DNA of 64,000 nucleotides from Candidatus Omnitrophota bacterium (GCA_018817585.1 JAHITE010000080.1:5774-69773), one strand, 5' to 3'; shown: positions 2,899 through 59,195, counted from the first letter of the stretch. Made by a program: numbers and translations. Notes: a model not told the origin generated them from the letters alone.

Positions 2899-5094
2899 TT
2901 ATTTGTTTTGTAATTCTTTGAGCTCAATTTTCGCGAAAACACGCAAAGCCTTAGGTTCAGCCGGGAAAAACAGTATTTTGCGTTTATGCTTAATTTCCTT
3001 TAGCACGCTGATTGTTAGTTCCTTGTCCAAACTGCGCAAAGATTTTAAAGCCGCAACGCGGATATCAATATTTAACAGCTCATTATCGCACATAGCCTCC
3101 TGTCCACGGGCAATCAAAGCAATGGTGGAACGCACTTCTTTATATCTAAAACCAGCTAAATATTCAATGCAGACAATGCGCAAAGCAATGAGCTTATGCC
3201 CCAAAATTTGCAAGAGCATGTTTAAAGCCGCGTGTGATTTGCGGTTGGCAATCAGCTTTAAAGCTCGTTGCGCTAAAATAATATTTTCATGAAACAATAT
3301 CGGCCAGACCAAAGGCAGCGCGGCATCATCATTAATTAGCTGCATTAATTCCAGTAAACGTAAAATGCTGTTGGTTGGCTCCTTGCATAAATCGATGTTT
3401 AATTTTAAAGCAGCAGTGCTATATTGCTCTAGAATAACTTGTTTAATTATTGTATCTTTGGATAAGTCACCTTTTTGCGTGTATAGTCTAAGGAGTAAGG
3501 CGATCAGTCTGTGTGAAAACAGGATAAATAAATCTTGTAAACAAAGTTTGGTTTTTGTTTCGGAATAAGTTTTAGTCATTTCTAAGATAAATTTTTCAAT
3601 CAGTGCTTCGGGAAAATGCTCCAAAGCATCCGCGATAAATAGTTTGTGCTCAGTAGTGATTAAAGACTCTGGTTTAAGTTGTTCCGCGAAAAAGTTAAAG
3701 GATTGACTGCTTTGCTCCAGGTCAGAACCGTGTAAAATACTTTTGGTTATTTGCAGGCATTTATCCAGCAAATCATTAAACACGGGGGTTTCTAATGGGT
3801 CAGACAATAAAGCGTGCAGGATTTCCAGATGTGCTGGAATCTCAGAATATTCTTCGATATATTTTTTTAAAATATCTTTTTCAAAGTGTACGGTTTTTAA
3901 TACATTTAAACCATCAATAATGTCGATTTTTTCTTCAGAGGTTATGGCGCCTAAAGCCAGGTCCACATTATCTTCCAGAGAAAGGCCAGGAGCAAAAGCC
4001 GAACAGATGTCATTTAAAATCGAAGAGGTTTTATCGGAATGCTCTAATCCGGTTTGCAGGGCCTGCTTGAAAGCCGGAAGAAAATTTAAAAAAGCGCTGC
4101 GGTCAATAAACACTCTGCTTAAGACATGTTTGGTATGCGCTATAATACTGAAAGTTTGATTTGATTCAGCGATTTTTTTAACAAACAATTTCGCGGTTTG
4201 CCCGGGGCTCATTTGTTCAAGTAGATAATTAGCGGCTTGCGTGTATTGGAGGATTTCTGCGTCGGGATCTTCAAATACCAAATCAAATAATGTTTCATTG
4301 CCGAACGCGGCAATTAAATCTTTTAAGATTGTATGGATTTCTTCTTCTTCAGAAAGTTCCAATGTGGTAATCGCGATTTTAATTTTATTTAGAATTTTAA
4401 GAATTAACTGGTTTTCACCCAGAGCAGAGGTTTGTTTTCTAATACTAAACTGCGAGGCAATTTTAATCAATTCGCAGACCAGTTGTGACTCTTGAAGCAA
4501 TTCATATAGAAAATGAGTTTGTTCAGAATCTAAAAAAGGCATCTCGTCGTCAGTAAAATAACGAAAGATAATACTGTTGGTTAAACTCAGCAAGCGCTCC
4601 TGATCCAGGGTGGAGTGTTTGCTGGAATAATATTCAATAATCCGAATTCCTTTGGAGCCTTTTTGAATTAAAATTTTACCCGCTCCACCCAAAGACGATA
4701 TTTTGCTGGTTTCAAAATTAAAGATTTCTACTAAAAGATCAATGTCAGTTAAGTTGGTGGCTGGATTGAAAATGATTTGGCGGATATAACGTTTTTGCAT
4801 TTCTTCAATAAAATCATCAATCCCCGGCAGCTTTTGATTATCCAAATGAATATCCAGAATATAAAGATTATTTTCATAGATGCGGAATACCGCGATTTGT
4901 TTTTGCGCGATAACTTCCTGAAGGGTTGTGTAGAATTTTTCTACAACTTGACTGAGCATTTGATGTCCGCGCGGATAGAGATGGACTGCTTTTAGCATGC
5001 CGAATAAACTCGCCGCGATTTGGCTGGCAAGTTTTATTTCCGCGGCAGTGTGTTCATGTTTATTCTGAGCTGTGTTTTGATCCATAAAAGGCAT
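2899..5094 (-). CDS. large HEAT/ARM-like repeat protein, probably co-transcribed with the HD-GYP gene
   Basis: 731-aa ORF with helical repeats near the C-terminus (PBS-lyase/HEAT-like). Tightly linked upstream of the HD-GYP gene on the same strand. Confidence 0.5.
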   Translation of the reverse strand: MPFMDQNTAQNKHEHTAAEIKLASQIAASLFGMLKAVHLYPRGHQMLSQVVEKFYTTLQEVIAQKQIAVFRIYENNLYILDIHLDNQKLPGIDDFIEEMQKRYIRQIIFNPATNLTDIDLLVEIFNFETSKISSLGGAGKILIQKGSKGIRIIEYYSSKHSTLDQERLLSLTNSIIFRYFTDDEMPFLDSEQTHFLYELLQESQLVCELIKIASQFSIRKQTSALGENQLILKILNKIKIAITTLELSEEEEIHTILKDLIAAFGNETLFDLVFEDPDAEILQYTQAANYLLEQMSPGQTAKLFVKKIAESNQTFSIIAHTKHVLSRVFIDRSAFLNFLPAFKQALQTGLEHSDKTSSILNDICSAFAPGLSLEDNVDLALGAITSEEKIDIIDGLNVLKTVHFEKDILKKYIEEYSEIPAHLEILHALLSDPLETPVFNDLLDKCLQITKSILHGSDLEQSSQSFNFFAEQLKPESLITTEHKLFIADALEHFPEALIEKFILEMTKTYSETKTKLCLQDLFILFSHRLIALLLRLYTQKGDLSKDTIIKQVILEQYSTAALKLNIDLCKEPTNSILRLLELMQLINDDAALPLVWPILFHENIILAQRALKLIANRKSHAALNMLLQILGHKLIALRIVCIEYLAGFRYKEVRSTIALIARGQEAMCDNELLNIDIRVAALKSLRSLDKELTISVLKEIKHKRKILFFPAEPKALRVFAKIELKELQNK

Positions 5095-5730
5095 CCCCTA
5101 ATCAGGTTAATATTATAGCAAATAATATTAAATGAATAAAGGAAAAAAGCGCCGCTTGATTCAGCCTGATATTGTGGAGAGAGATGATCTATAAAAAATG
5201 GTCTTGACATTGGGGAGAGGCATAGAGCGTCTAAAGTAGTAAATTCTTTTTCAAGCCCTTCTTGGCCAATAATGCCAAATTACTCACTTGTTCCTCTGTA
5301 ATATTGCTCATAGTCAAAACTACTTTAATAACAGCATGTTACCTCTGTTACTACATATATAGCCATAAGTTTGGAGATATAGGAAGTTTATTGGCGTAAT
5401 AAATAGGGGCAAAATAAGAGGAGAAAAGATGGCAAAGATTATACACGTAGTTTACAAGAAGGGAAAATGCTAATCATCCAAAGGCAAAGACTTTAAGAAA
5501 AAACTGGATGATATTCAAGCCTGAAAATACGAATAGTGAAGGGGAAAAGATTGTTTTCCCCTATCGGCGTGCTGGAACTTCCTGCTATGAACCAGAGCAT
5601 AGCTCGATTCATGGTTAGCGCAAGGAGGGAAACATAAGGGTTCCTCTTTAAGGAGTGAGTGGCCCTGTATTTCAAGTGAAACGATACGACAGGTTTGGGG
5701 GAAGCGAAAGTCCTCGCAGATTGTAAACAA

Positions 5731-6470
5731 GGGACAGCGACTAGTTTTTATTGACAACAACATAGGTTATTTGTATGATGGTTGTATGCCAAGAATAGCC
5801 AGAGTAGTTGTGAAAGATTGCCCGCATCATATTACCCAGCGAGGTAATTATAAACAAATAACTTTTTCTGAAGACAGTGATTATCAGCGATATCTGGAAT
5901 TGATAAAAGAATATAGCGATAAAAATAAACTGTTGATAATCAGTTATTGTTTAATGCCCAACCATGTGCATTTCATTGCAGTTCCTATAAATCAGGATTC
6001 TTTTGCCAGAACGTTTAATTCGGCGCATATGAGGTATTCTCAATATTATAATAAGAAGAATGGAGTCAGTGGTCATTTATGGCAGGGAAGATTTTATTCT
6101 TGTGCGTTGGACGAGAAGCATTTATATGAGGCAGTAAGATATGTCGAAAATAATCCGGTAAGGGCCGGTTTGGTGATGAGTGCGAAAGATTGGAAATACA
6201 GTAGTGCAAAAGCGCATGGATCAGGCAACAGTAGCTTAGGAGAGTTAACGTTATTAAAGATTAACAGGTATGTTCAGGTAGCAGATTGGGATAAATATTT
6301 GAATGAAAGAACAGATGGGGCAGTAGTAGAATTAATTAAAGGAAATACGTTGACGGGAAGACCCTCTGGTAGTTCAAGTTTCGTTCGGAAATTGGAGCAG
6401 GTGTTTGGAATGAGGTTGACTCCTTTGTCAGAAGGGCGGCCCAAAAAGGCTAAAAACTAGTCGCTGTCCC
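5731..6470 (+). mobile_element. RAYT/IS200-like element bounded by perfect 19-bp terminal inverted repeats
   Basis: gggacagcgactagttttt at 5731-5749 and its exact reverse complement aaaaactagtcgctgtccc at 6452-6470 flank a single Y1 (HuH) transposase gene. Confidence 0.7.
5771..6460 (+). CDS. REP-associated tyrosine transposase (RAYT), IS200/Y1 transposase family
   Basis: HuH motif (NHVHFIAVP) and a downstream conserved Tyr region (RYSQYY...HLWQGRFYS...VENNPVRAGLV), characteristic of COG1943/Y1_Tnp. The true start may be the ATG at 5786. Confidence 0.8.
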   Translation: MYDGCMPRIARVVVKDCPHHITQRGNYKQITFSEDSDYQRYLELIKEYSDKNKLLIISYCLMPNHVHFIAVPINQDSFARTFNSAHMRYSQYYNKKNGVSGHLWQGRFYSCALDEKHLYEAVRYVENNPVRAGLVMSAKDWKYSSAKAHGSGNSSLGELTLLKINRYVQVADWDKYLNERTDGAVVELIKGNTLTGRPSGSSSFVRKLEQVFGMRLTPLSEGRPKKAKN

Positions 6471-49818: not shown

Positions 49819-50810
49819 ACAGTTAGATCAAGGATGTTGGCTTGATCAAGATCAGCATTGCCCAAATCGCGGTTTATCGCGCTGGCGATATAGGGAATAG
49901 ACATGGGGTCATAACCCATAAGTTTGGCCGCATACGCGTCAGTTAAGACAGGCTCTGTGCCGACAATTAATTTTTGCGTAAGTTGGACATCTTCCAGATT
50001 TCCGCCTACCGGGCCATTGCGCAATAATACTCGGTAAGCATCAATCACGGTTAGGTCAGGATTAATGAAATTAGTCAGATCAGCCAGTTTTAGTCCAATA
50101 TCAGTGTGGATGTTTCCCCGCGAGCCTGAGCAAATGCCCATTAAGTTTTTCATGGAAAGGGTAAGCCCAGTGAGCCGATGATGTTTCATGATCGGGACAT
50201 TAATAAAAGTGTCGCACTCTAAAGCTTCGCGAAAAACCGGCCAGTTTTCCATGGGGCTTTGATAGGCAAATTTTGCTTGGCAGACATTCCAGGGGCTTGG
50301 AAAAAAGATATTAGCTTTATGTTCTTTGGCGATTTTCTGTATACCGCTATTATCATAACAGCGTTTAGCGTCATTGCAGCAATTATCAAAAATATTGACT
50401 CTTTTTGCTCCAGCTTGAAAACATAGATCAATTAAAGCGGCGATAACATCAGGATTTGTATTAGCGGCTTGTTCCGGGGTTCTGTCCCAAGCAATATTTG
50501 GTTTGATTAATACTGTGCTATTGGGTTTTACAAAATGTTCCATTCCTCCTATTGCCTGAATAGCTTTTAATGTAAGCTGATACGGATCACTCCCGGAAGC
50601 AGCGACTAAATCATAAGCAGTTTTAATGTTTTTTTTAATTCTGCCTGTTGAATCAGCGGGTAAGGCTAATGCGGCTTTAGCAATAATGCTTTCAGTAACT
50701 AATAAGCTGGCTCCGGAACAGAGTAATTTTAAAAATTCTTTTCTGGATATTTTTTTTTGAAATATTGAATCAAATTTCATGGCCGCCTCCTTAATCAATA
50801 AGTTTACCAT
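49815..50810 (-). CDS. DUF362-domain protein with a twin-arginine (Tat) signal
   Basis: SRKEFLKLLCSGASLL Tat motif. VLIKPNIAWDR...DLC DUF362 core. Overlaps the polyferredoxin start by 4 nt. Confidence 0.75.
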   Translation of the reverse strand: MVNLLIKEAAMKFDSIFQKKISRKEFLKLLCSGASLLVTESIIAKAALALPADSTGRIKKNIKTAYDLVAASGSDPYQLTLKAIQAIGGMEHFVKPNSTVLIKPNIAWDRTPEQAANTNPDVIAALIDLCFQAGAKRVNIFDNCCNDAKRCYDNSGIQKIAKEHKANIFFPSPWNVCQAKFAYQSPMENWPVFREALECDTFINVPIMKHHRLTGLTLSMKNLMGICSGSRGNIHTDIGLKLADLTNFINPDLTVIDAYRVLLRNGPVGGNLEDVQLTQKLIVGTEPVLTDAYAAKLMGYDPMSIPYIASAINRDLGNADLDQANILDLTV

Positions 50811-51147
50811 TTAAAACATAGATGTTCAAGGCCACAAAGACACCAGGTCAAAAGCCAAAAGCAGGCAGTTAAAATATAATCTATTAGAGGCGTTGAGAAC
50901 TAAAATAGATTGATTTGGAGGTTTTACAAAAGTTTTTAACCTGGTGACTTTGTGACCCAGGTGACCTGGTGATTTATAGATTAATTTTTAAAACTTGTGT
51001 AACCTGGGATATAAGAGTATAATCAATAAAGTAATAAGCAATACGTAATCCCGCATCAAAAGTGTAGGACAACAATATTCATGCCTAGATAGACAGCATA
51101 TCTTATTTGATCCCGTTATATATAGGCTGATAACAAAGAAAGACAGT

Positions 51148-52380
51148 ATGAGCAATTTATCACATACAAATGAACAAAATAATGCCAGTTTTTATGGCTT
51201 GGGCATAGCTCCGCGAATCTTGGAGATTTTGGAGAGTCTGAAATTTAAATCGCCAACCCCGATTCAGTTTCAGGCAATTCCTTTGGCTATTGAAGGTAAG
51301 GATGTTGTGGGCATTGCCCAGACAGGCACAGGCAAGACGCATTCTTTTGCTATTCCCATGGTTCAATGTTTGGCTGGAAAAAAAGGAATAGGCCTTGTTT
51401 TAGCTCCAACAAGAGAGCTGGCAATGCAGATAGACGAAGTTTTTCAGCTGATTGTCCCTTCCTTTAAAATGGAAGCAGTTTGTCTGATCGGCGGAGCACC
51501 AATGGATCCGCAGGTAAAAGCTTTGCGGCGTAATCCGAGAATTATTATCGCGACTCCTGGGCGTTTAATTGATCATATGAGCAATTGGAATGTATTGCCC
51601 CAGGAAGTAGAAATGCTGGTTTTAGATGAAGCGGATAGAATGCTGGATATGGGATTTTTACCCCAGATTGAGTTAATCCTGCAGCATTTGCCTAAAGAAC
51701 GGCAAACAATGTTGTTTTCCGCGACCATGCCTAAAGAAATCGTGGGCATAGCGGCTAAATATATGCAATTGCCGGTTTCTGTAGAAATCGCGCCGGCTGG
51801 GACAACCGCGGATAATGTTACGCAGGAATTATACATTGTTAAAAAAAGCGCGAAAATGGATTTATTGCGTAAAGTGCTCAGTAAGTATCATGGTCCGGTT
51901 TTGTTGTTTTCCCGGACAAAGCATAATGCCACGCGTTTAGTTCGGTCGATTCGAGGCATGGGGCATCGTGCCGCAGAAATACATTCTGATCGCAGCCTTG
52001 ATCAGCGCGTGGAAGCTTTGGAAGGATTTAAATCCGGGCAATATAAAGTGTTGGTAGCTACAGATATTGCTTCCAGGGGAATTGATGTTACAGGTATTGA
52101 ATTGGTAATCAACTATGATATTCCGGATGATGCCAGCAATTATGTTCATCGGATCGGCAGAACAGGAAGAGCCGGACATAAAGGTCACGCGATTTCTTTT
52201 GCCATGCCGGAACAAAAGCGAGATGTTGAAGATATTGAAAAACTTATTAAAGCAACTTTGCCAATCTCTAAACACCCTAAAATACAGTCGGAATCATTTA
52301 TTATGGAAACTCCGGGTAATTTTCCGCCGAAAAAAAAGCCGAGAAGGCCTTCGCCATCTTCCCCCCGCCAGAAAAAATAA
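51148..52380 (+). CDS. DEAD-box ATP-dependent RNA helicase
   Basis: Q-motif, AQTGTGKT, PTRELA, DEAD, SAT, HRIGRTGRAG. The basic C-tail ends in KKKPRRPSPSSPRQKK. Confidence 0.9.
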   Translation: MSNLSHTNEQNNASFYGLGIAPRILEILESLKFKSPTPIQFQAIPLAIEGKDVVGIAQTGTGKTHSFAIPMVQCLAGKKGIGLVLAPTRELAMQIDEVFQLIVPSFKMEAVCLIGGAPMDPQVKALRRNPRIIIATPGRLIDHMSNWNVLPQEVEMLVLDEADRMLDMGFLPQIELILQHLPKERQTMLFSATMPKEIVGIAAKYMQLPVSVEIAPAGTTADNVTQELYIVKKSAKMDLLRKVLSKYHGPVLLFSRTKHNATRLVRSIRGMGHRAAEIHSDRSLDQRVEALEGFKSGQYKVLVATDIASRGIDVTGIELVINYDIPDDASNYVHRIGRTGRAGHKGHAISFAMPEQKRDVEDIEKLIKATLPISKHPKIQSESFIMETPGNFPPKKKPRRPSPSSPRQKK

Positions 52381-52532
52381 GATTTTAAGGCAAAGGGTTG
52401 ATTGTTAAAGAGCGATAAACCAGGGAGTGCTTTTAATAAACTAAGAAAATCTATTTTTTTAATTAGGTTGACAAGCTGGGGCAATGAGCGCATACTGAAT
52501 ATAGTAGTAAATAAGGGAATTGAGGTCTTAGT

Positions 52533-52568
52533 CCGCAAGGTAAAAGAAATTCACCTTGCGGTTTTTTT
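52533..52568 (+). terminator. intrinsic terminator/attenuator hairpin (ccgcaagg...ccttgcgg + T7) in the csp leader region
   Basis: 8-bp stem then ttttttt. Sits ~60 nt downstream of a ttgaca-17-catact promoter (52466-52494). Confidence 0.55.
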
Positions 52569-52618
52569 CTTTAGGCTGTTATTTATTATAATTTAGAAAG
52601 AAGGAGGTGTAATAAATA

Positions 52619-52819
52619 ATGGCAAAAGGAACAGTTAAATGGTTTAGCGACCAAAAGGGCTATGGATTTATTGCTTCTGAGTCAGGCAAAGATGTATTCG
52701 TACATCATAATGCGATTCAGGGTAATGGTTATAAGTCTTTAAATGAGGGCCAGGAGGTTGAATTTGAAGTACAGCCAGGGCCAAAAGGTGAACAAGCGGC
52801 AAATGTAGTAAAAATATAA
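52619..52819 (+). CDS. cspA: cold-shock protein (CspA family)
   Basis: [15 protein letters not shown]...DVFVHH (RNP1/RNP2). Confidence 0.9.
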
Positions 52820-52831
52820 CTTGCATGTAGC

Positions 52832-52862
52832 AAGGCTCGAACAAAAAGTTCGGGCCTTGTTT
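52832..52862 (+). terminator. terminator hairpin after the first csp gene
   Basis: caaggctcgaac...gttcgggccttg followed by tttctt. Confidence 0.5.
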
Positions 52863-52881
52863 CTTAATAAGGAGATATGAT

Positions 52882-53091
52882 ATGCATAAGGGTAAAATAA
52901 ATAAAGTTGTTCGGGATAGAGGCTTTGGCTTTATTGATGATACAGATGGCAGACAATTATTCTTTCATCAGAGCAGTGTATCAGGAGTGGAATTTGATTC
53001 TTTAAGAGGGGAAGAACAGGTTGAGTTTGAAGTCGAAGATTCTCCTAAAGGACCAAGAGCGATTAATATAAAGATAATAGAACAAGCGTAA
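52882..53091 (+). CDS. cold-shock domain protein, second paralog
   Basis: GKINKVVRDRGFGFIDDTDGRQLFFHQSSV. Confidence 0.85.
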   Translation: MHKGKINKVVRDRGFGFIDDTDGRQLFFHQSSVSGVEFDSLRGEEQVEFEVEDSPKGPRAINIKIIEQA

Positions 53092-53134
53092 TCCCAGACA
53101 CGATGGGATTAATGTTTTTGTTTTGAGAGCAGGA

Positions 53135-53169
53135 AAAAGGGATGGCTTTAGCCATCCCTTTTTCCTGAA
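53135..53169 (+). terminator. rho-independent terminator after the csp pair
   Basis: aaagggatggct / agccatcccttt stem followed by a T-run. Preceded by a second small hairpin at 53093-53109. Confidence 0.6.
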
Positions 53170-53181
53170 AAAAAACATATT

Positions 53182-53216
53182 GACAAATAATCGTATTGTA
53201 CTATTATACATACGAA
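53182..53216 (+). promoter_or_regulatory. sigma70-like promoter of the kamA operon (-35 ttgaca, 17 bp, -10 tattat/attata)
   Basis: Read from the sequence. The next gene's RBS (ggaagga) and ATG lie at 53273. Confidence 0.5.
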
Positions 53217-53272
53217 TAAAGATAAAATTAACTTGTTTCTAAACAGTATCCTTGGAAGGAGACACGCTGTTC

Positions 53273-54457
53273 ATGGAAAGACAAATCCTAAATGGTGGAG
53301 ACTCGGAGAATGATAAACCTCCAGACTCGTGCAGTACCAGCAGTGAATATTTGAATAAAAATAATTGTAACAATAATTTAATAGTTACTGCTGAACCAAA
53401 ACCGCTTCCAAAAAAGTTGATAGCTACGGCTGAGCAATTGGCCAAGTTTATTAATTTTGACGCAACAACACGCAAAGCTTTGATTGAGATTATCAAACAA
53501 TACCATATGTTAATTCCTCCTTACTATTTTTCTTTAATTAAAGATCCAAATGATGAAAATGATCCAATTCGCAAGCAATGTGTTCCCGCGCTAGAGGAGC
53601 TTTTTTCTAATTCCATGGAAAGAGAAGATCCCTTAGGTGAAAAGAAAACATCAGTTACTAATATATTAGTGCATCGTTATCCGGATAGAGTGCTTTTAAT
53701 TTCCACATCGCGCTGTTTTATGTATTGCCGTCATTGCACGCGCAAACGTTTATGGCAGAATAATAATGTTGAACCGACTCTCGCGGAAATCCATTCTTCT
53801 TTAGAATATGTCAGAGCGCATAAAGAAATCCGAGAAATTATTATTTCCGGAGGAGATCCCTTGACCTTAAATCAAGAAAGGCTGGATTGGATTTTAGAGC
53901 AAGCGAGCAATATTGAACATATTCAGTCTATTCGTATCGGAACGAGAACTCCAGTAGTATTTCCGGAGCGAATAACCAAGAGTTTATGCCGCATTCTGGG
54001 TAAATATGATAAGCTTTGGATAAATCTGCAGTTTAATCATCCGCGGGAAATAACCCCGGAATCCACGGCAGCCTGCCAGATGCTGCAAAAAAGCGGCATC
54101 CCTTTGAGCAACCAGAGTGTTTTGTTAAAAGGGGTGAATGATTCCGTGGAGGTAATGAAAGAACTTTGTCAAAAACTCCAGGCAATCAGGGTTAGACCGT
54201 ATTATATTTTTCAATGTGATGAAGTGGTAGGGGCATCGCATTTCCGGACCTCAATATTTAGGGGCATAGAAATAATCGAGCATCTGCGCGGACATACCAG
54301 CGGAATGTGTGTTCCGAGATTTGTGGTCGATGGCCCTAATGGCAAAGGAAAAATACCTTTAGACCCGCAGTATTTGCTGAGCATGACACCGAATAAAGTG
54401 GTTTTGAGAAACTATAATAATGAAGTATTTGAATATCATAATCCCCAAAGTGATTAG
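53273..54457 (+). CDS. KamA-family radical-SAM/PLP aminomutase (lysine-2,3-aminomutase-like)
   Basis: CxxxCxxC in STSRCFMYCRHCTRKR, IISGGDPLTL (PLP region) and conserved KamA C-terminal blocks. Start chosen at the second ATG with an RBS. Confidence 0.85.
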   Translation: MERQILNGGDSENDKPPDSCSTSSEYLNKNNCNNNLIVTAEPKPLPKKLIATAEQLAKFINFDATTRKALIEIIKQYHMLIPPYYFSLIKDPNDENDPIRKQCVPALEELFSNSMEREDPLGEKKTSVTNILVHRYPDRVLLISTSRCFMYCRHCTRKRLWQNNNVEPTLAEIHSSLEYVRAHKEIREIIISGGDPLTLNQERLDWILEQASNIEHIQSIRIGTRTPVVFPERITKSLCRILGKYDKLWINLQFNHPREITPESTAACQMLQKSGIPLSNQSVLLKGVNDSVEVMKELCQKLQAIRVRPYYIFQCDEVVGASHFRTSIFRGIEIIEHLRGHTSGMCVPRFVVDGPNGKGKIPLDPQYLLSMTPNKVVLRNYNNEVFEYHNPQSD

Positions 54458-54475
54458 CTGGAAAAAGGATATTTA

Positions 54476-55489
54476 ATGAAAACAGCGCTTAATCATAAGC
54501 TTCGGGCGGGAATATGTTTTAATCTAAAAAGGGATATAGACAGCGACTCGGACGAAGAATATGATGAAATAGAAACCATAGAATTTTTGCAAAAGCGATT
54601 GGAATATTTGGGCTTTGAAGTTTTGCTTGCTGAACAAGACCAGGATTTATTCAGCAAGCTTAATAGTAATAAACTGGATTTTGTCTTGAATATCGCTGAA
54701 GGCAAAGGCAAAACCCGCAGCCGGGAATCGCAAGTTCCCTGCTTGCTGGAATGGCTGAATATCCCTTATTATGGTTCTGATCCTGCTGCTTTGGCTTTAA
54801 CTCTGGATAAATGGCTTAACTATGTTGTTTTAAAAAATTCTTCTATTCCTGTTCCGAAAATGTTTACAATATCTGATCTTCAGCAGCTGCAGAGTCTGGC
54901 TATTCCTTTTGACGGCCGTAAATATATTATTAAGCCTCGCTGGGAAGGCTCGTCCAAAGGCATTTTTGATGATTCAGTAATCAGTTCGATTGATAAATGC
55001 CGGGATAAAGTTAATTTTATTTTAACTCAATATCATCAGCCGGCATTGGTCGAAGAGTTTGTGGAAAACGAAGAAATCACTGTTGGCTTGTGTGGTAATC
55101 AGGAGCTTGAAATCCTGGGAATGATGAAGATTTCTCAAAATCAGCAAAAAAAAACTTTTGTTTATTCAATAGAAAATAAGCGGGATTGGCAGGCGCGAAT
55201 CAAATATGAGCGCGCTGAAGAAGTTATCGCGGATAAGACATTAAAGCTGCTGCGCCAATATGCCATGGCCGCGTTTAAGGTGCTTGGCTTGGCTGATGTG
55301 GCACGCATAGATTTTCGGGTGGACAACCTGGGTGTACCAAAAATAATTGATGTAAACCCTTTGCCAGGGCTTTCTCCTAGGTATAGTGATTTAATGCTAA
55401 TCTCCAAGCTGCATAATAAGAAATTTGTTGATGTGGTTGATAAGATTTTAAACATATCTTTAAAAAGGAATAATATACATACCTCGTGA
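54476..55489 (+). CDS. ATP-grasp ligase, D-Ala-D-Ala ligase (Ddl)/PylC-like, paralog 1
   Basis: EGKGKTRSRESQVPCLLEWLNIPYYGSDPAALALTLDKWL..., the Ddl central-domain pattern (HG..GEDG..QG.LE..GIPY.GS....A..MDK), and a C-terminal ATP-grasp (ARIDFRVD...IIDVNPLPGL). Confidence 0.8.
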   Translation: MKTALNHKLRAGICFNLKRDIDSDSDEEYDEIETIEFLQKRLEYLGFEVLLAEQDQDLFSKLNSNKLDFVLNIAEGKGKTRSRESQVPCLLEWLNIPYYGSDPAALALTLDKWLNYVVLKNSSIPVPKMFTISDLQQLQSLAIPFDGRKYIIKPRWEGSSKGIFDDSVISSIDKCRDKVNFILTQYHQPALVEEFVENEEITVGLCGNQELEILGMMKISQNQQKKTFVYSIENKRDWQARIKYERAEEVIADKTLKLLRQYAMAAFKVLGLADVARIDFRVDNLGVPKIIDVNPLPGLSPRYSDLMLISKLHNKKFVDVVDKILNISLKRNNIHTS

Positions 55490-56484
55490 AAGTATTAATA
55501 GCTATTGCCCGCGAAAATAATGCCAGACAAGATAATGCCGACGCTTCGCGCTGCGCGGATTCGATCAAAGCAGCTTTGTCAGCAAAAAATATAGCTGCCG
55601 ATTTATTTTTTGTCGAGCCTGGCGACTTTTTAAGGTCTGAAAAAAATTTAATAAGAAAAATTAAAAATTTAAATCCCGACTGTGTATTTAATTTGTTTGA
55701 AGGATTTAGTTATGACGCGCAAAGGGAAATTGATTTTGCTGGTATCTTGGAGAAGACCGGGATCGCGTTTACCGGGAATAAAAGTAAAGTCTTAGAGCAA
55801 TGTTTGGATAAAAACTTGTGTAAAAATCTTTTGCTAAAGGCTGGTTTGCCTGTGCCAGCTGGTCTTTGTCTTAAGCCAGGAGAAGGCTTGAGTTCAAGTA
55901 AGCTTAAATTGCCTGTGTTTATTAAGCCATGCTGTGAAGACGCGAGCGTGGGGATTGATAAAGATTCTTTGGTTTCTAACCAGGAAGATTTAAATAAAGT
56001 TATAAATTTAAAACTGCAAAAGCATCCGGAAGGCCTGATTATTGAAGAGTTTCTTTCCGGTAATGAATACAATGTGTCCTTTATTGGTCAGCCGCCTTAT
56101 GAAATGCTGGGTATCTCGATCATGGATTATTCCAAAGTCAACGCGCAAAAACCGTTTATGAGTTATGAGGCTAAGTGGGAGCGGCAAAGTCCGGATTTCA
56201 ATAAGCTGATTCCCCAAGTGATCGCGAAAAATCAATACAGTGATTTAGAAAAACAAATTGCTGATCTCTGCGTTCAAGCAGCGCGAAATATCGGATGTTC
56301 CGGCTATTTTAGAGTAGACCTGAGGCAAAGCAATAATAAAATTTTTATAATTGATGTTAATCCTAATCCGGATATAAATAATGACAGCGGCTTTGCCCGT
56401 CAGGCCTATTCCGCGGGGTATACATATGAAGAAATTATTTGTAAAATACTTAGTTTAACTATGGAAAGACTAAACCTTGATTGA
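55486..56484 (+). CDS. ATP-grasp ligase, Ddl-like, paralog 2 (start overlaps the previous stop)
   Basis: VFNLFEGFSYDAQREIDFAGILEKTGIAFTGNKSKVLEQCLDKNL..., and FRVDLRQS.NKIFIIDVNPNPD. Confidence 0.8.
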   Translation: MKVLIAIARENNARQDNADASRCADSIKAALSAKNIAADLFFVEPGDFLRSEKNLIRKIKNLNPDCVFNLFEGFSYDAQREIDFAGILEKTGIAFTGNKSKVLEQCLDKNLCKNLLLKAGLPVPAGLCLKPGEGLSSSKLKLPVFIKPCCEDASVGIDKDSLVSNQEDLNKVINLKLQKHPEGLIIEEFLSGNEYNVSFIGQPPYEMLGISIMDYSKVNAQKPFMSYEAKWERQSPDFNKLIPQVIAKNQYSDLEKQIADLCVQAARNIGCSGYFRVDLRQSNNKIFIIDVNPNPDINNDSGFARQAYSAGYTYEEIICKILSLTMERLNLD

Positions 56485-56966
56485 ATCCGGAGTCTGGCAT
56501 GAAATATGAAATAAAACAGTACTTAAAAATAACCAAGAGTACCGCGGTTTTTACAGAAGGCGAAATTGAGATTTTAAAAGAACTGTTAGAGGATTTGCAG
56601 AATAATAAAAAAACAACATACAGCTTGATTGAAGAAGCAGCGGATGGTAAATTAGCCGGGTTTACTTTATTTGGCCGTACGCCATTAACGGAATTCACCT
56701 GGGATATTTATTGGATAATCGTGGATAAATCATTTCAGGGCAGAGGGATTGGAAAATCGCTGCTAATCAAAACCGAAGAACTGATTAAAGCGAAAACACC
56801 CAGAGCGACAATAAAGCTGGAAACATCGACAAGAAACCAATATTCCGCGGCGCGGGGTTTATATAAAAAAGTGAAATTTGAAGAAGCAGGTAAACTGGTG
56901 AATTTTTATTCTGAAGGCGATGATATGGTTATTTTTTATAAAGAGATTCGTGTCGCGGAAAAATAA
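56481..56966 (+). CDS. GNAT family N-acetyltransferase (start overlaps the previous stop)
   Basis: IVDKSFQGRGIGKSLL (acetyl-CoA P-loop Q/RxxGxG/A). Confidence 0.8.
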   Translation: MNPESGMKYEIKQYLKITKSTAVFTEGEIEILKELLEDLQNNKKTTYSLIEEAADGKLAGFTLFGRTPLTEFTWDIYWIIVDKSFQGRGIGKSLLIKTEELIKAKTPRATIKLETSTRNQYSAARGLYKKVKFEEAGKLVNFYSEGDDMVIFYKEIRVAEK

Positions 56967-57101
56967 GTGTACTGATTTTGATGGATGAGAATAGATAAAT
57001 TAGAAAAAATAACTGGATGCTTGATTTTATCAGACAATTTGATATAATAAAAGACTTTAACACTTTAAAATATAGAAAAGCATAAAAAGGAGATAGTTCC
57101 A

Positions 57102-59195
57102 ATGGCACGTTTAATCGAATTAGATAAGGTAAGAAATATTGGCATCATGGCGCATATTGACGCGGGAAAGACTACGGTAACCGAAAGAATATTGTTTTAT
57201 ACCGGCAGATCGCATAAGATCGGTGAAGTACATGACGGTAAAGCGCAGATGGATTGGATGAAGCAGGAACAGGAAAGAGGGATCACGATTACCTCCGCGG
57301 CGACAACCTGCGCTTGGAATGGACATAAGATTAATATTATTGATACTCCCGGTCACGTTGATTTTACCGTAGAAGTTGAGCGTAGTTTGCGAATCCTTGA
57401 TGGCGCAGTTGCCGTGTTTTGCGCGGTTGGCGGTGTAGAACCTCAGTCGGAAACAGTTTGGAGACAATCTGATAAATATCAAGTCCCAAAGATCGCGTTT
57501 ATTAATAAAATGGATCGGATTGGTGCTGACTTTTTTTCAGTTGTAAAAAACATTGAAGATGATCTTGGGGCAAATGTTATTCCCTTGCAGATTCCGATGG
57601 GCGCGGAAGATCATTTTATTGGAATTATTGACTTGCTGGAAATGCAAGCCTGTATTTATGAAGATGATTCACAAGGTAAGAATTTCCGGTTGGAAGCGAT
57701 TCCCGCGGAGTACGCGGAAAAAGTTAAAGAATTTCAGCATAATTTGCTGGAAAAAGCTGTGGAATTAGACGATAGTTTAATGGAAAAATATTTAGAAGAC
57801 GAAAATTCTATCACTAAAGAAGAGCTGATTGCCGCGATCCGCAAAGGAACAATTGCTAATAAAATTGTTCCGGTTTTGTGCGGTTCGGCATTTAAGAACA
57901 AAGGTGTGCAGAGATTGCTGGACGCGGTTACTATGTATCTGCCATCGCCAGTTGATTTGCCGCCGGTTGAAGGTCATGATCCGGATGATGTAGAAAAGAA
58001 AATTCTTCGCAGGCCTGATGATAATGAACCCTTTTCCGCGCTTGCTTTTAAAATTCAGGCTGATCCGCATATGGGGAAATTAGTATATTTCCGGGTTTAC
58101 TCCGGAACAATCAAAGCCGGCACCTATATTTATAATTCAACTAAAGGCAGAAAAGAAAGAGTCGGCCGTTTGATGCAGATGCATGCTAATACCCGGGATA
58201 TGCGCGAAGAGATTTGCGCTGGGGATATCGCGGCGGTTGTTGGTTTAGATCGCACGATAACCGGGGATACGCTTTGTGATGAGGATAATCAGGTTGTGCT
58301 TGAGGCCATGGAATTTCCCGCGCCGGTTATGTCTTTGAGTATTAAACCGCAAAGTCGTCCGGATCAGGATAAGCTGGGCAAAGGCTTGATGCGCTTAGCT
58401 GAAGAAGATCCGACTTTTACAGTGCAAACAGATAAAGAGACTGATGAAACTATTCTTTCCGGAATGGGAGAATTACATCTGGAAATCATTGTCGACCGCT
58501 TAAAGCATGAATTTAAAGTAGAAGCAGTTGTTGGAAAACCAAAGGTTGCTTATCGGGAGACAATCACCGCTAGTGCTACTGAAAACTATAAGCATGTTAA
58601 GCAAACAGGTGGTAAAGGACAGTACGCGCATGTGGTGCTTAAGATTTATCCTGCTGAGCCGGGACATGGTTTTGAGTTTGTCAATAAGATTACCGGAGGA
58701 TCAATTCCCCGGGAATATATTCCGGCGGTTGAAAAAGGGGTTATTGAGAGAATGCTAAAAGGAAGTTTTGCCGGATATCCAGTTGTCGACGTTATGGTTG
58801 AATTAACTGATGGTTCTTACCATGATGTTGATTCTTCAGAAATGGCGTTTAAAGTCTGCGCGTCAGAGTGTTTTAAACGCGCGTTTATGAATGCGTCACC
58901 AATCTTGCTGGAACCTTATATGTCTATTGAAGCCTCATCTCCGGAAGAATATACCGGATCTGTAGTTGGCGATATGTGTTCCCGCCGCGGAAAAGTATTG
59001 GGCATGGAAATGAAGGCTAAACTGCAGATTGTCTCAGCAGAAGCTCCGCTGTCAGAAATGTTTGGATATGCCAGTGCCTTGCGTTCAATGAGCAGCGGCA
59101 GAGCGAATTATTCAATGCATTTTGAAAAATACATTGAAGTTCCTTTCTCGATCGCGGAAAAGATTATTGAAGAGAAAAAGCAGGTTAAAAAGTAA
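57102..59195 (+). CDS. fusA: elongation factor G, stand-alone copy
   Basis: [27 protein letters not shown] and the full five-domain length (697 aa). Not within a str/S10 operon context in this window. Confidence 0.9.

Follow-up and report, generated by a model that had tools for sequence, protein, structure and literature searches.

The operon at positions 53252-56966 (+ strand) of a 64,000-nucleotide stretch of a Candidatus Omnitrophota bacterium genome (GCA_018817585.1, JAHITE010000080.1:5774-69773; hereafter the window, meaning the whole stretch) contains four co-directional open reading frames (ORFs), encoding a KamA-family lysine 2,3-aminomutase, two Ddl-fold ATP-grasp ligases (AG1 and AG2) and a small GNAT N-acetyltransferase. 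The reading that is favoured here, at somewhat better than even confidence, is that these four proteins constitute a short cytoplasmic pathway in which lysine would be converted to beta-lysine, joined to other groups by one or two ATP-dependent ligations, and N-acetylated. An earlier sequence-only reading had recognised all four proteins, and Pfam and NCBIfam agree with those identifications; its statement that the genes could not be assigned to a characterised pathway also stands, as none was found in the literature. None of the four proteins falls under a curated NCBIfam equivalog, and no description of this cluster was found in the open-access literature, most subscription journals being outside the scope of that search.

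Assignment of the first enzyme as a lysine-type aminomutase is well supported. The KamA gene (53273-54457, + strand; 394 aa from ATG 53273) encodes a radical-SAM/pyridoxal phosphate (PLP) protein with Radical_SAM and LAM_C domains (Pfam) and the CxxxCxxC and GGDPL motifs, which passes the NCBIfam subfamily model TIGR00238 (312.5 bits against a cutoff of 199.2) and matches the lysine 2,3-aminomutase of C. subterminale (CsLAM, PDB 2A5H) at E 1e-114. Asp293 and Asp330 of CsLAM bind the lysine epsilon-ammonium group, and both are reportedly replaced in glutamate 2,3-aminomutase (Ruzicka and Frey are said to have described this). When these two positions were checked, as the sequence-only reading had proposed, both were found to be kept in the window protein together with Lys337, indicating a lysine aminomutase, and the equivalents of C125/C129/C132, R134 and GGD are also present. 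Among aligned cluster-linked KamA homologues, C125/C129/C132, R134, GGD and D293 are invariant (64/64), and D330 and the PLP lysine K337 are each kept in 63/64. The predicted substrate is therefore lysine and the predicted product beta-lysine. Of the three products originally entertained, beta-glutamate is excluded because the lysine-type substrate residues are kept (the glutamate 2,3-aminomutase model gives 420.9 bits against a cutoff of 650), and beta-arginine appears unlikely on the basis of the hidden Markov model (HMM) scores (367.3 bits against a cutoff of 600 for arginine 2,3-aminomutase). The protein is also not EpmB, the enzyme of elongation factor P (EF-P) beta-lysylation that had been raised as a competing identity, with a score of 254.9 bits against a cutoff of 369.3, and there is no efp gene in the window or in 90 loci.

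The top NCBIfam model for the window KamA is AblA (TIGR03820), at 465.9 bits against a cutoff of 525.4, a shortfall attributable to the absence of the C-terminal domain (model positions 364-417). Only 34 residues follow the PLP lysine, compared with 79 in CsLAM; the C-terminal domain bearing the CsLAM Cys375/377/380 zinc site was not found in the window KamA, and the equivalent of CsLAM C268 is Ser. This C-terminally short type is common to the window, Omnitrophota and Desulfovibrio copies, and three full-length Synergistota-type cluster-linked KamAs (from Synergistaceae L055, Bacterium M3-1 L073 and Acetomicrobium L081) pass the AblA equivalog with 579-603 bits. At the other end of the protein, the first approximately 50 residues (53273-53440) form a low-complexity, Asn/Ser-rich extension that does not align to CsLAM and that differs in length among homologues.

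Strong evidence that the four genes act together comes from their distribution across genomes. Loci were surveyed by searching with the window proteins and clustering the ORFs, in a scan of one genome per species that covered 80 loci, and the synteny search suggested in the sequence-only reading returned the four-gene set in Omnitrophota, Synergistota, Thermodesulfobacteriota and Desulfovibrionaceae, the last reached by a search with the sequence of PDB entry 2R7H. KamA and AG1 are found no more than 10 kb apart in 63 of 83 non-redundant loci, in 31 of the 40 loci having at least 5 kb on both sides, and in 40/42 Omnitrophota-type metagenome-assembled genomes, both exceptions having truncated upstream flanks. 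Gene order is not fixed: the order KamA-AG1-AG2-GNAT is seen in Omnitrophota, one Thermodesulfobacteriota locus and Desulfovibrio, the order AG1-AG2-GNAT-KamA in many Synergistaceae, and a KamA placed 5-7 kb upstream in Thermovirgaceae and the cultured Bacterium M3-1 (CP159918). In cultured Desulfovibrio mangrovi (CP104208) and in metagenome contigs nearest Oleidesulfovibrio, a sigma-54 activator gene precedes KamA, AG1-type, AG2-type and GNAT genes. Fusions are also recurrent, with a single KamA-AG1 polypeptide of approximately 730 aa in nine loci (Pfam-confirmed), and a search of 1.84 billion protein representatives, which gave 329 family clusters at E <= 1e-30, recovered KamA-ligase fusions, a single protein with the opposite order (ligase-KamA) and many in which two ligases are joined in tandem. 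This combination of rearranged synteny across phyla and gene fusions identifies AG1-AG2-KamA-GNAT as a conserved functional unit, and the rearrangements together with the independence of the fusions are strong evidence, at the level of gene organisation, that AG1 uses the beta-lysine which KamA produces and that the two ligases cooperate. Within the protein library, ATP-grasp-ATP-grasp fusions of 600-790 aa are common (P0361, P0363, P0375, P0402 and P0463 comprise these and one ATP-grasp-KamA protein), and several further proteins of 550-640 aa (P0392, P0429 and P0486) carry 270-420 N-terminal residues without a Pfam match.

Both ligases have the fold of Ddl. AG1 (54476-55489, + strand) and AG2 (55486-56484, + strand) match Pfam Dala_Dala_lig_C at 1e-20 and 6e-25, respectively, and an AlphaFold2 model of AG1 (predicted local distance difference test score 90.6) finds Ddl as its best PDB folds, at approximately 20% identity. 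When the ligases were compared with individual families, the values were 32 for Ddl, 22-23 for ArgX/LysX, 22 for RimK, about 21 for L-amino-acid ligases, 18.7 for PylC and 14-17 for graspetide macrocyclases. With E. coli DdlB as the reference, the alignment of which agreed with the PDB matches, the catalytic residues K97, K144, E180, E187, K215, R255, D257, E270 and N272 are kept in both proteins, with E270 replaced by D. The Ddl specificity residues, on the other hand, are replaced: H63 by E and Y216 by W in both AG1 and AG2 (E75 and W238 in AG1), L282 by D305 in AG1 and by G302 in AG2, and S150 by A in AG2. The residues standing in for H63, Y216 and L282 are family-invariant, and there are additional residues of note in each protein, the invariant R81, R83, R155, R281 and R331 in AG1 and D16, D152, D296 and D300 in AG2. 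The two proteins thus look like catalytically competent ligases that are not Ddl, nor are they of the PylC, RimK or MdnC types. Each represents an old orthogroup distinct from the other, and in the Desulfovibrio cluster one ligase bears the AG1 signature and the second that of AG2.

That AG1 and AG2 are ordinary cell-wall Ddl paralogues (or Ddl/MurF paralogues, as the sequence-only reading had allowed) lying beside kamA and the GNAT gene by chance is accordingly very improbable. Their best named matches are indeed Ddl, and some homologue records read 'D-alanine--D-alanine ligase', but their Ddl HMM scores of 117 and 124 bits are under half of the cutoff of 243, the specificity residues are replaced, the linkage to KamA and GNAT is kept across phyla, and fusions exist. 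There is no canonical ddl in the window, matches to DdlB (23-28% identity) being confined to AG1 and AG2. Two ATP-grasp genes with a GNAT also resemble mdnBCD, which would make the operon a graspetide (microviridin-like) locus for a ribosomally synthesised and post-translationally modified peptide, with two macrocyclases and the GNAT acting on a ribosomal precursor. This was rejected, and is regarded as extremely unlikely, on the grounds of the ligase fold and of there being no room for a precursor gene; neither an MvdD/MdnC-type ATP-grasp protein nor a precursor was found.

The fourth protein (ACETYLTRANSFERASE; 56499-56966, + strand; 155 aa from ATG 56499) is a small, RimI-like GNAT matching Acetyltransf_1 at 2.6e-10, for which RimI is the top-scoring NCBIfam model (54.8 bits, short of its cutoff of 86.4). 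It gives no match to the AblB model TIGR03827 at E <= 0.01, and the suggestion that two ligases had been inserted between an AblA-like and an AblB-like gene is therefore not the right history. Its closest solved relative is PDB 2R7H (E 3.5e-18 over nearly the full length, approximately 35% identity), a structure without an assigned function that is labelled 'putative D-alanine N-acetyltransferase of GNAT family' and that is presumably a protein of Desulfovibrio G20. Sequences 99% identical to 2R7H (over 141 aligned residues) occur on the contigs nearest Oleidesulfovibrio, where their genes are part of the same KamA-AG1-AG2-GNAT cluster.

Taken together, the favoured pathway would begin with the conversion of L-lysine to beta-lysine by KamA, the well-supported step. 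AG1 would act directly on beta-lysine, a role suggested by its fusion to KamA in other genomes, forming an amide bond through an acyl-phosphate intermediate, at either the carboxylate or an amine of beta-lysine. AG2, an equally old paralogue that is often fused to AG1 elsewhere, would add a second amide bond, and the RimI-like GNAT would then acetylate a leftover free amine, removing its positive charge. The expected product is a small N-acetylated compound containing beta-lysine (an amide, a dipeptide or a tripeptide), which may be regarded as an extended relative of N-epsilon-acetyl-beta-lysine and which would most likely serve as a stress-protective or charge-balancing solute. This physiological role is held with less confidence than the logic of the pathway itself.

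Genes that accompany the cluster in other genomes bear on both the role and the alternatives to it. In Thermovirgaceae and Bacterium M3-1 the gene order is NhaC - KamA - bacterial PH-domain gene - NhaC - MscS - (NAGPA, other strand) - AG1 - AG2 - GNAT, and four loci have a ProV/OpuA-type ABC ATPase with a CBS domain 0.8-5 kb downstream of GNAT. The presence of NhaC, MscS and a ProV-like ATPase in the Thermovirgaceae cluster makes an osmoprotectant role plausible, and these loci lend independent support to an ion or osmotic function. The two NhaC-family genes of M3-1 that flank KamA and the PH-domain gene (L073:1104-2612 and 4815-6326) are 99% identical, which looks like a recent duplication.

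Other accessory genes concern acetylation. A GNAT-HDAC fusion gene (578-585 aa) lies beside the cluster or within approximately 2 kb of it in three phyla, in Omnitrophota, on a Synergistales chromosome and in Desulfovibrio mangrovi, where it follows GNAT (L004:10462-12198 and L088:10629-12386; also L016, L049 and L053). Its HDAC part belongs to the acetylpolyamine-amidohydrolase family (PF00850, 1.6e-77), suggesting that the acetylation is reversible and the unacetylated product cationic; in some lineages the nearby GNAT-HDAC deacetylase could thus reverse the last step of the pathway. In six Omnitrophota loci without GNAT, a PIG-L/LmbE-family deacetylase (435 aa) is encoded between AG1 and AG2 (L035:5057-6364; also L023, L030, L033, L038 and L077). 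These genes would also suit a different product, a bioactive or polyamine-like cation such as an oligo-beta-lysine or beta-lysyl-amine comparable with the streptothricin side chain, for which the GNAT would provide self-protection or storage and the HDAC or PIG-L proteins reactivation. The recurrence of the fusions, the replacement of GNAT by PIG-L, the acid-rich predicted pocket of AG2 (D16, E72, D152, D296 and D300) with E75 and D305 in AG1, and the precedent of blasticidin S, in which a KamA-family aminomutase feeds an ATP-grasp ligase (BlsG/BlsI), are all in keeping with such a cation. However, the window has no transporter, resistance or regulatory genes typical of antibiotic clusters, the occurrence of the cluster is vertical and broad across entire phyla and not patchy, an apparent signal peptide is present on the PIG-L protein, and the pocket was deduced from sequence alignment alone, so that this explanation is considered improbable.

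In 19 Omnitrophota-type loci (L006:6528-6776, L045:8135-8320, L035:2100-2312 and 16 others), a LysW-like zinc-ribbon gene (PF21344) closely precedes KamA. The encoded proteins have long acidic C-terminal tails, often with an aromatic last residue (EEF, DF, EY), and the genes are often accompanied by an ArsR regulator and a 137-aa signal-peptide protein. Their position raises the alternative of protein or carrier-protein modification, in which the ligases would attach beta-lysine, or a short chain of it, to the acidic tail and the GNAT would cap the amine, amounting to a new amino-group-carrier-protein or RimK-like system. The absence of LysW-like genes from the window and from the Synergistota and Desulfovibrio loci tells against this alternative, which is judged quite improbable. 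A LysW/LysX amino-group carrier system, combining a LysW gene with a RimK-type ATP-grasp protein, was not found, the ligases being of Ddl type. None of the LysW-like, ArsR, PIG-L or HDAC accessory genes is encoded in the window, and PADLOC anti-phage defence models match none of the four proteins.

Several observations weigh against the pathway leading from beta-lysine to an N-acetylated amide, or at least against its generality. Among the 40 loci flanked by 5 kb or more on each side, nine (eight from Synergistota and one from an Elusimicrobiaceae genome) carry AG1-AG2-GNAT but lack a KamA in the surrounding 10 kb, and these keep the same pocket residues; either KamA is encoded elsewhere in these genomes or beta-lysine is not obligatory. 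Some Omnitrophota have KamA-AG1 only, and others have AG1-(PIG-L deacetylase)-AG2 with GNAT absent, indicating that the full product is not universal. The pocket residues are mixed, those predicted for AG1 being rich in both Arg and acidic residues and those for AG2 acid-rich, and the window KamA scores below the AblA equivalog cutoff. As to the role, many hosts are freshwater or groundwater Omnitrophota, in which a dedicated osmolyte would be less obviously needed.

The layout of the genes in the window fits a single operon, as they are packed within 18 nt of one another (gaps of -4 to 18 nt). The four genes of the sequence-only reading were borne out, in that the ORFs lie where it placed them, and they are preceded by a promoter-like sigma-70-type site, TTGACA-16-TATTAT (53180-53207, + strand), which matches 11/12 consensus positions and is the top such site in a 5-kb scan (52300-57300), ranked by consensus match alone. 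Upstream of it, a hairpin with an A-tract, GC stem and U-tract (53130-53166, + strand; -34.6 kcal/mol, z -8.3, with 0/200 shuffles folding as well) is predicted to terminate transcription of csp2, the gene upstream, and delimits the operon on its 5' side. The longest KamA ORF (53252-54457) opens with TTG at 53252, but the most likely start is ATG 53273, with a ribosome-binding site, GGAAGGAG, at 53254-53261. AG1 starts 18 nt past the KamA stop with AAAGGA in front of it, and the GTG start of AG2 shares GTGA with the AG1 stop (55486-55489). Of the two start/stop overlaps originally proposed, this one holds and recurs in L008, the relative at 93% identity; the second, between AG2 and GNAT at 56481-56484, is doubtful, since it hinges on a TTG start at 56481 (longest GNAT ORF, 56481-56966), and the two ORFs do not overlap in L008. 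ATG 56499 appears the more likely GNAT start, because GGAG at 56488-56491 sits 7 nt upstream of it and the resulting 155 aa match the length of the homologues (154-159 aa). Downstream, EF-G has its own promoter-like site (57021-57048).

The csp, DEAD-box and EF-G genes around the operon had been interpreted as a cold/osmotic stress block, an idea that did not survive comparison with L008, in which this setting is not conserved. In that relative (protein identities of 93-95%), the two csp genes lie 7.7 kb upstream of the operon, Fur and Fe-S assembly genes occupy the interval, and the downstream neighbours are SulP and Rex rather than EF-G. The approximately 7.7 kb separating csp2 from KamA there (L008:840-8541, corresponding to window 53092-53251) encode Fur, two Nitro_FeMo-Co proteins, two MinD/4Fe-4S ATPases, NifU, an ARMT1-like protein and a metallo-beta-lactamase-fold protein, and their absence at this position of the window points to a recent rearrangement or deletion beside the operon. 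An Rfam scan of 50700-57200 for a riboswitch or leader upstream of KamA gave sub-threshold matches alone. A sub-threshold match to the cspA thermoregulator RNA RF01766 (52519-52862; 44.4 bits, the gathering score being 78; E 4e-9) takes in both the 5' leader of the first csp gene and its coding region.

Known fates of beta-lysine are few, comprising N-epsilon-acetyl-beta-lysine, EF-P modification, lysine fermentation and a few antibiotics. If correct, a widespread ATP-grasp-dependent beta-lysine route would add a class of metabolite and two new specificities among Ddl-fold ligases. More specifically, it is possible, although at a little less than even confidence, that N-acetylated beta-lysine amides or peptides, ligated by two dedicated Ddl-fold ligases, form a new class of stress solute or polyamine surrogate in Omnitrophota, Synergistota, Desulfobacterota and Elusimicrobiota anaerobes, and that in the Omnitrophota variants with a LysW-like acidic zinc-ribbon gene these ligases act instead on a carrier protein, in what would be the first Ddl-fold system of the amino-group-carrier type. 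There is also a consequence for annotation, as homologues labelled 'D-alanine--D-alanine ligase' in many genomes misrepresent the cell-wall capacity of poorly known phyla. The presence of the cluster in cultured D. mangrovi and Bacterium M3-1, together with the crystal structure 2R7H of a GNAT homologue, makes the question directly testable.

Among the closest known systems is AblA/AblB (kamA-yodP). KamA with a GNAT makes N-epsilon-acetyl-beta-lysine, a result credited to Pfluger et al. (2003) in PMC3543383. The two systems have a same-family lysine 2,3-aminomutase with a GNAT, AblA being the best HMM match of the window KamA, and formation of beta-lysine followed by neutralisation of an amine by acetylation is probably shared; an osmoadaptive context is seen in Thermovirgaceae. 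This cluster differs in its two ATP-grasp ligases, which can even be fused to KamA, in a 155-aa, RimI-like GNAT that is not AblB, and in a KamA that lacks the AblA C-terminal domain and falls under the AblA cutoff. Relative to Ddl/VanA, the ligases are approximately 20% identical, carry family-specific charged residues and have KamA and GNAT as neighbours rather than a cell-wall cluster.

In blasticidin S biosynthesis, BlsG is an arginine 2,3-aminomutase and BlsI an ATP-grasp ligase coupling beta-arginine to cytosinine, so that there is a common logic in which a KamA-family aminomutase makes a beta-amino acid and an ATP-grasp ligase forms the amide; here, however, lysine is favoured, there are no nucleoside genes, two ligases and a GNAT are present, and the hosts are anaerobes rather than actinomycetes. 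PylB/PylC likewise combines a radical-SAM lysine mutase with an ATP-grasp ligase that resembles Ddl and takes the rearranged lysine as substrate; neither close sequence or structural similarity to PylC nor pylB and pylD was found for the window genes. Synthesis of N-acetylglutaminylglutamine amide (NAGGN) by Ngg, a bifunctional GNAT and ATP-grasp protein, with AsnO, and of N-acetylaspartylglutamate (NAAG) by RIMKLA/B, similarly yields a small N-acetylated dipeptide from a GNAT and an ATP-grasp ligase, NAGGN being an osmoprotectant, but employs RimK-type ligases and no aminomutase or beta-amino acid. The operon is thus predicted to work like an extended AblA/AblB pathway, yet belongs to none of AblA/AblB, BlsG/BlsI, PylB/PylC or NAGGN/NAAG.

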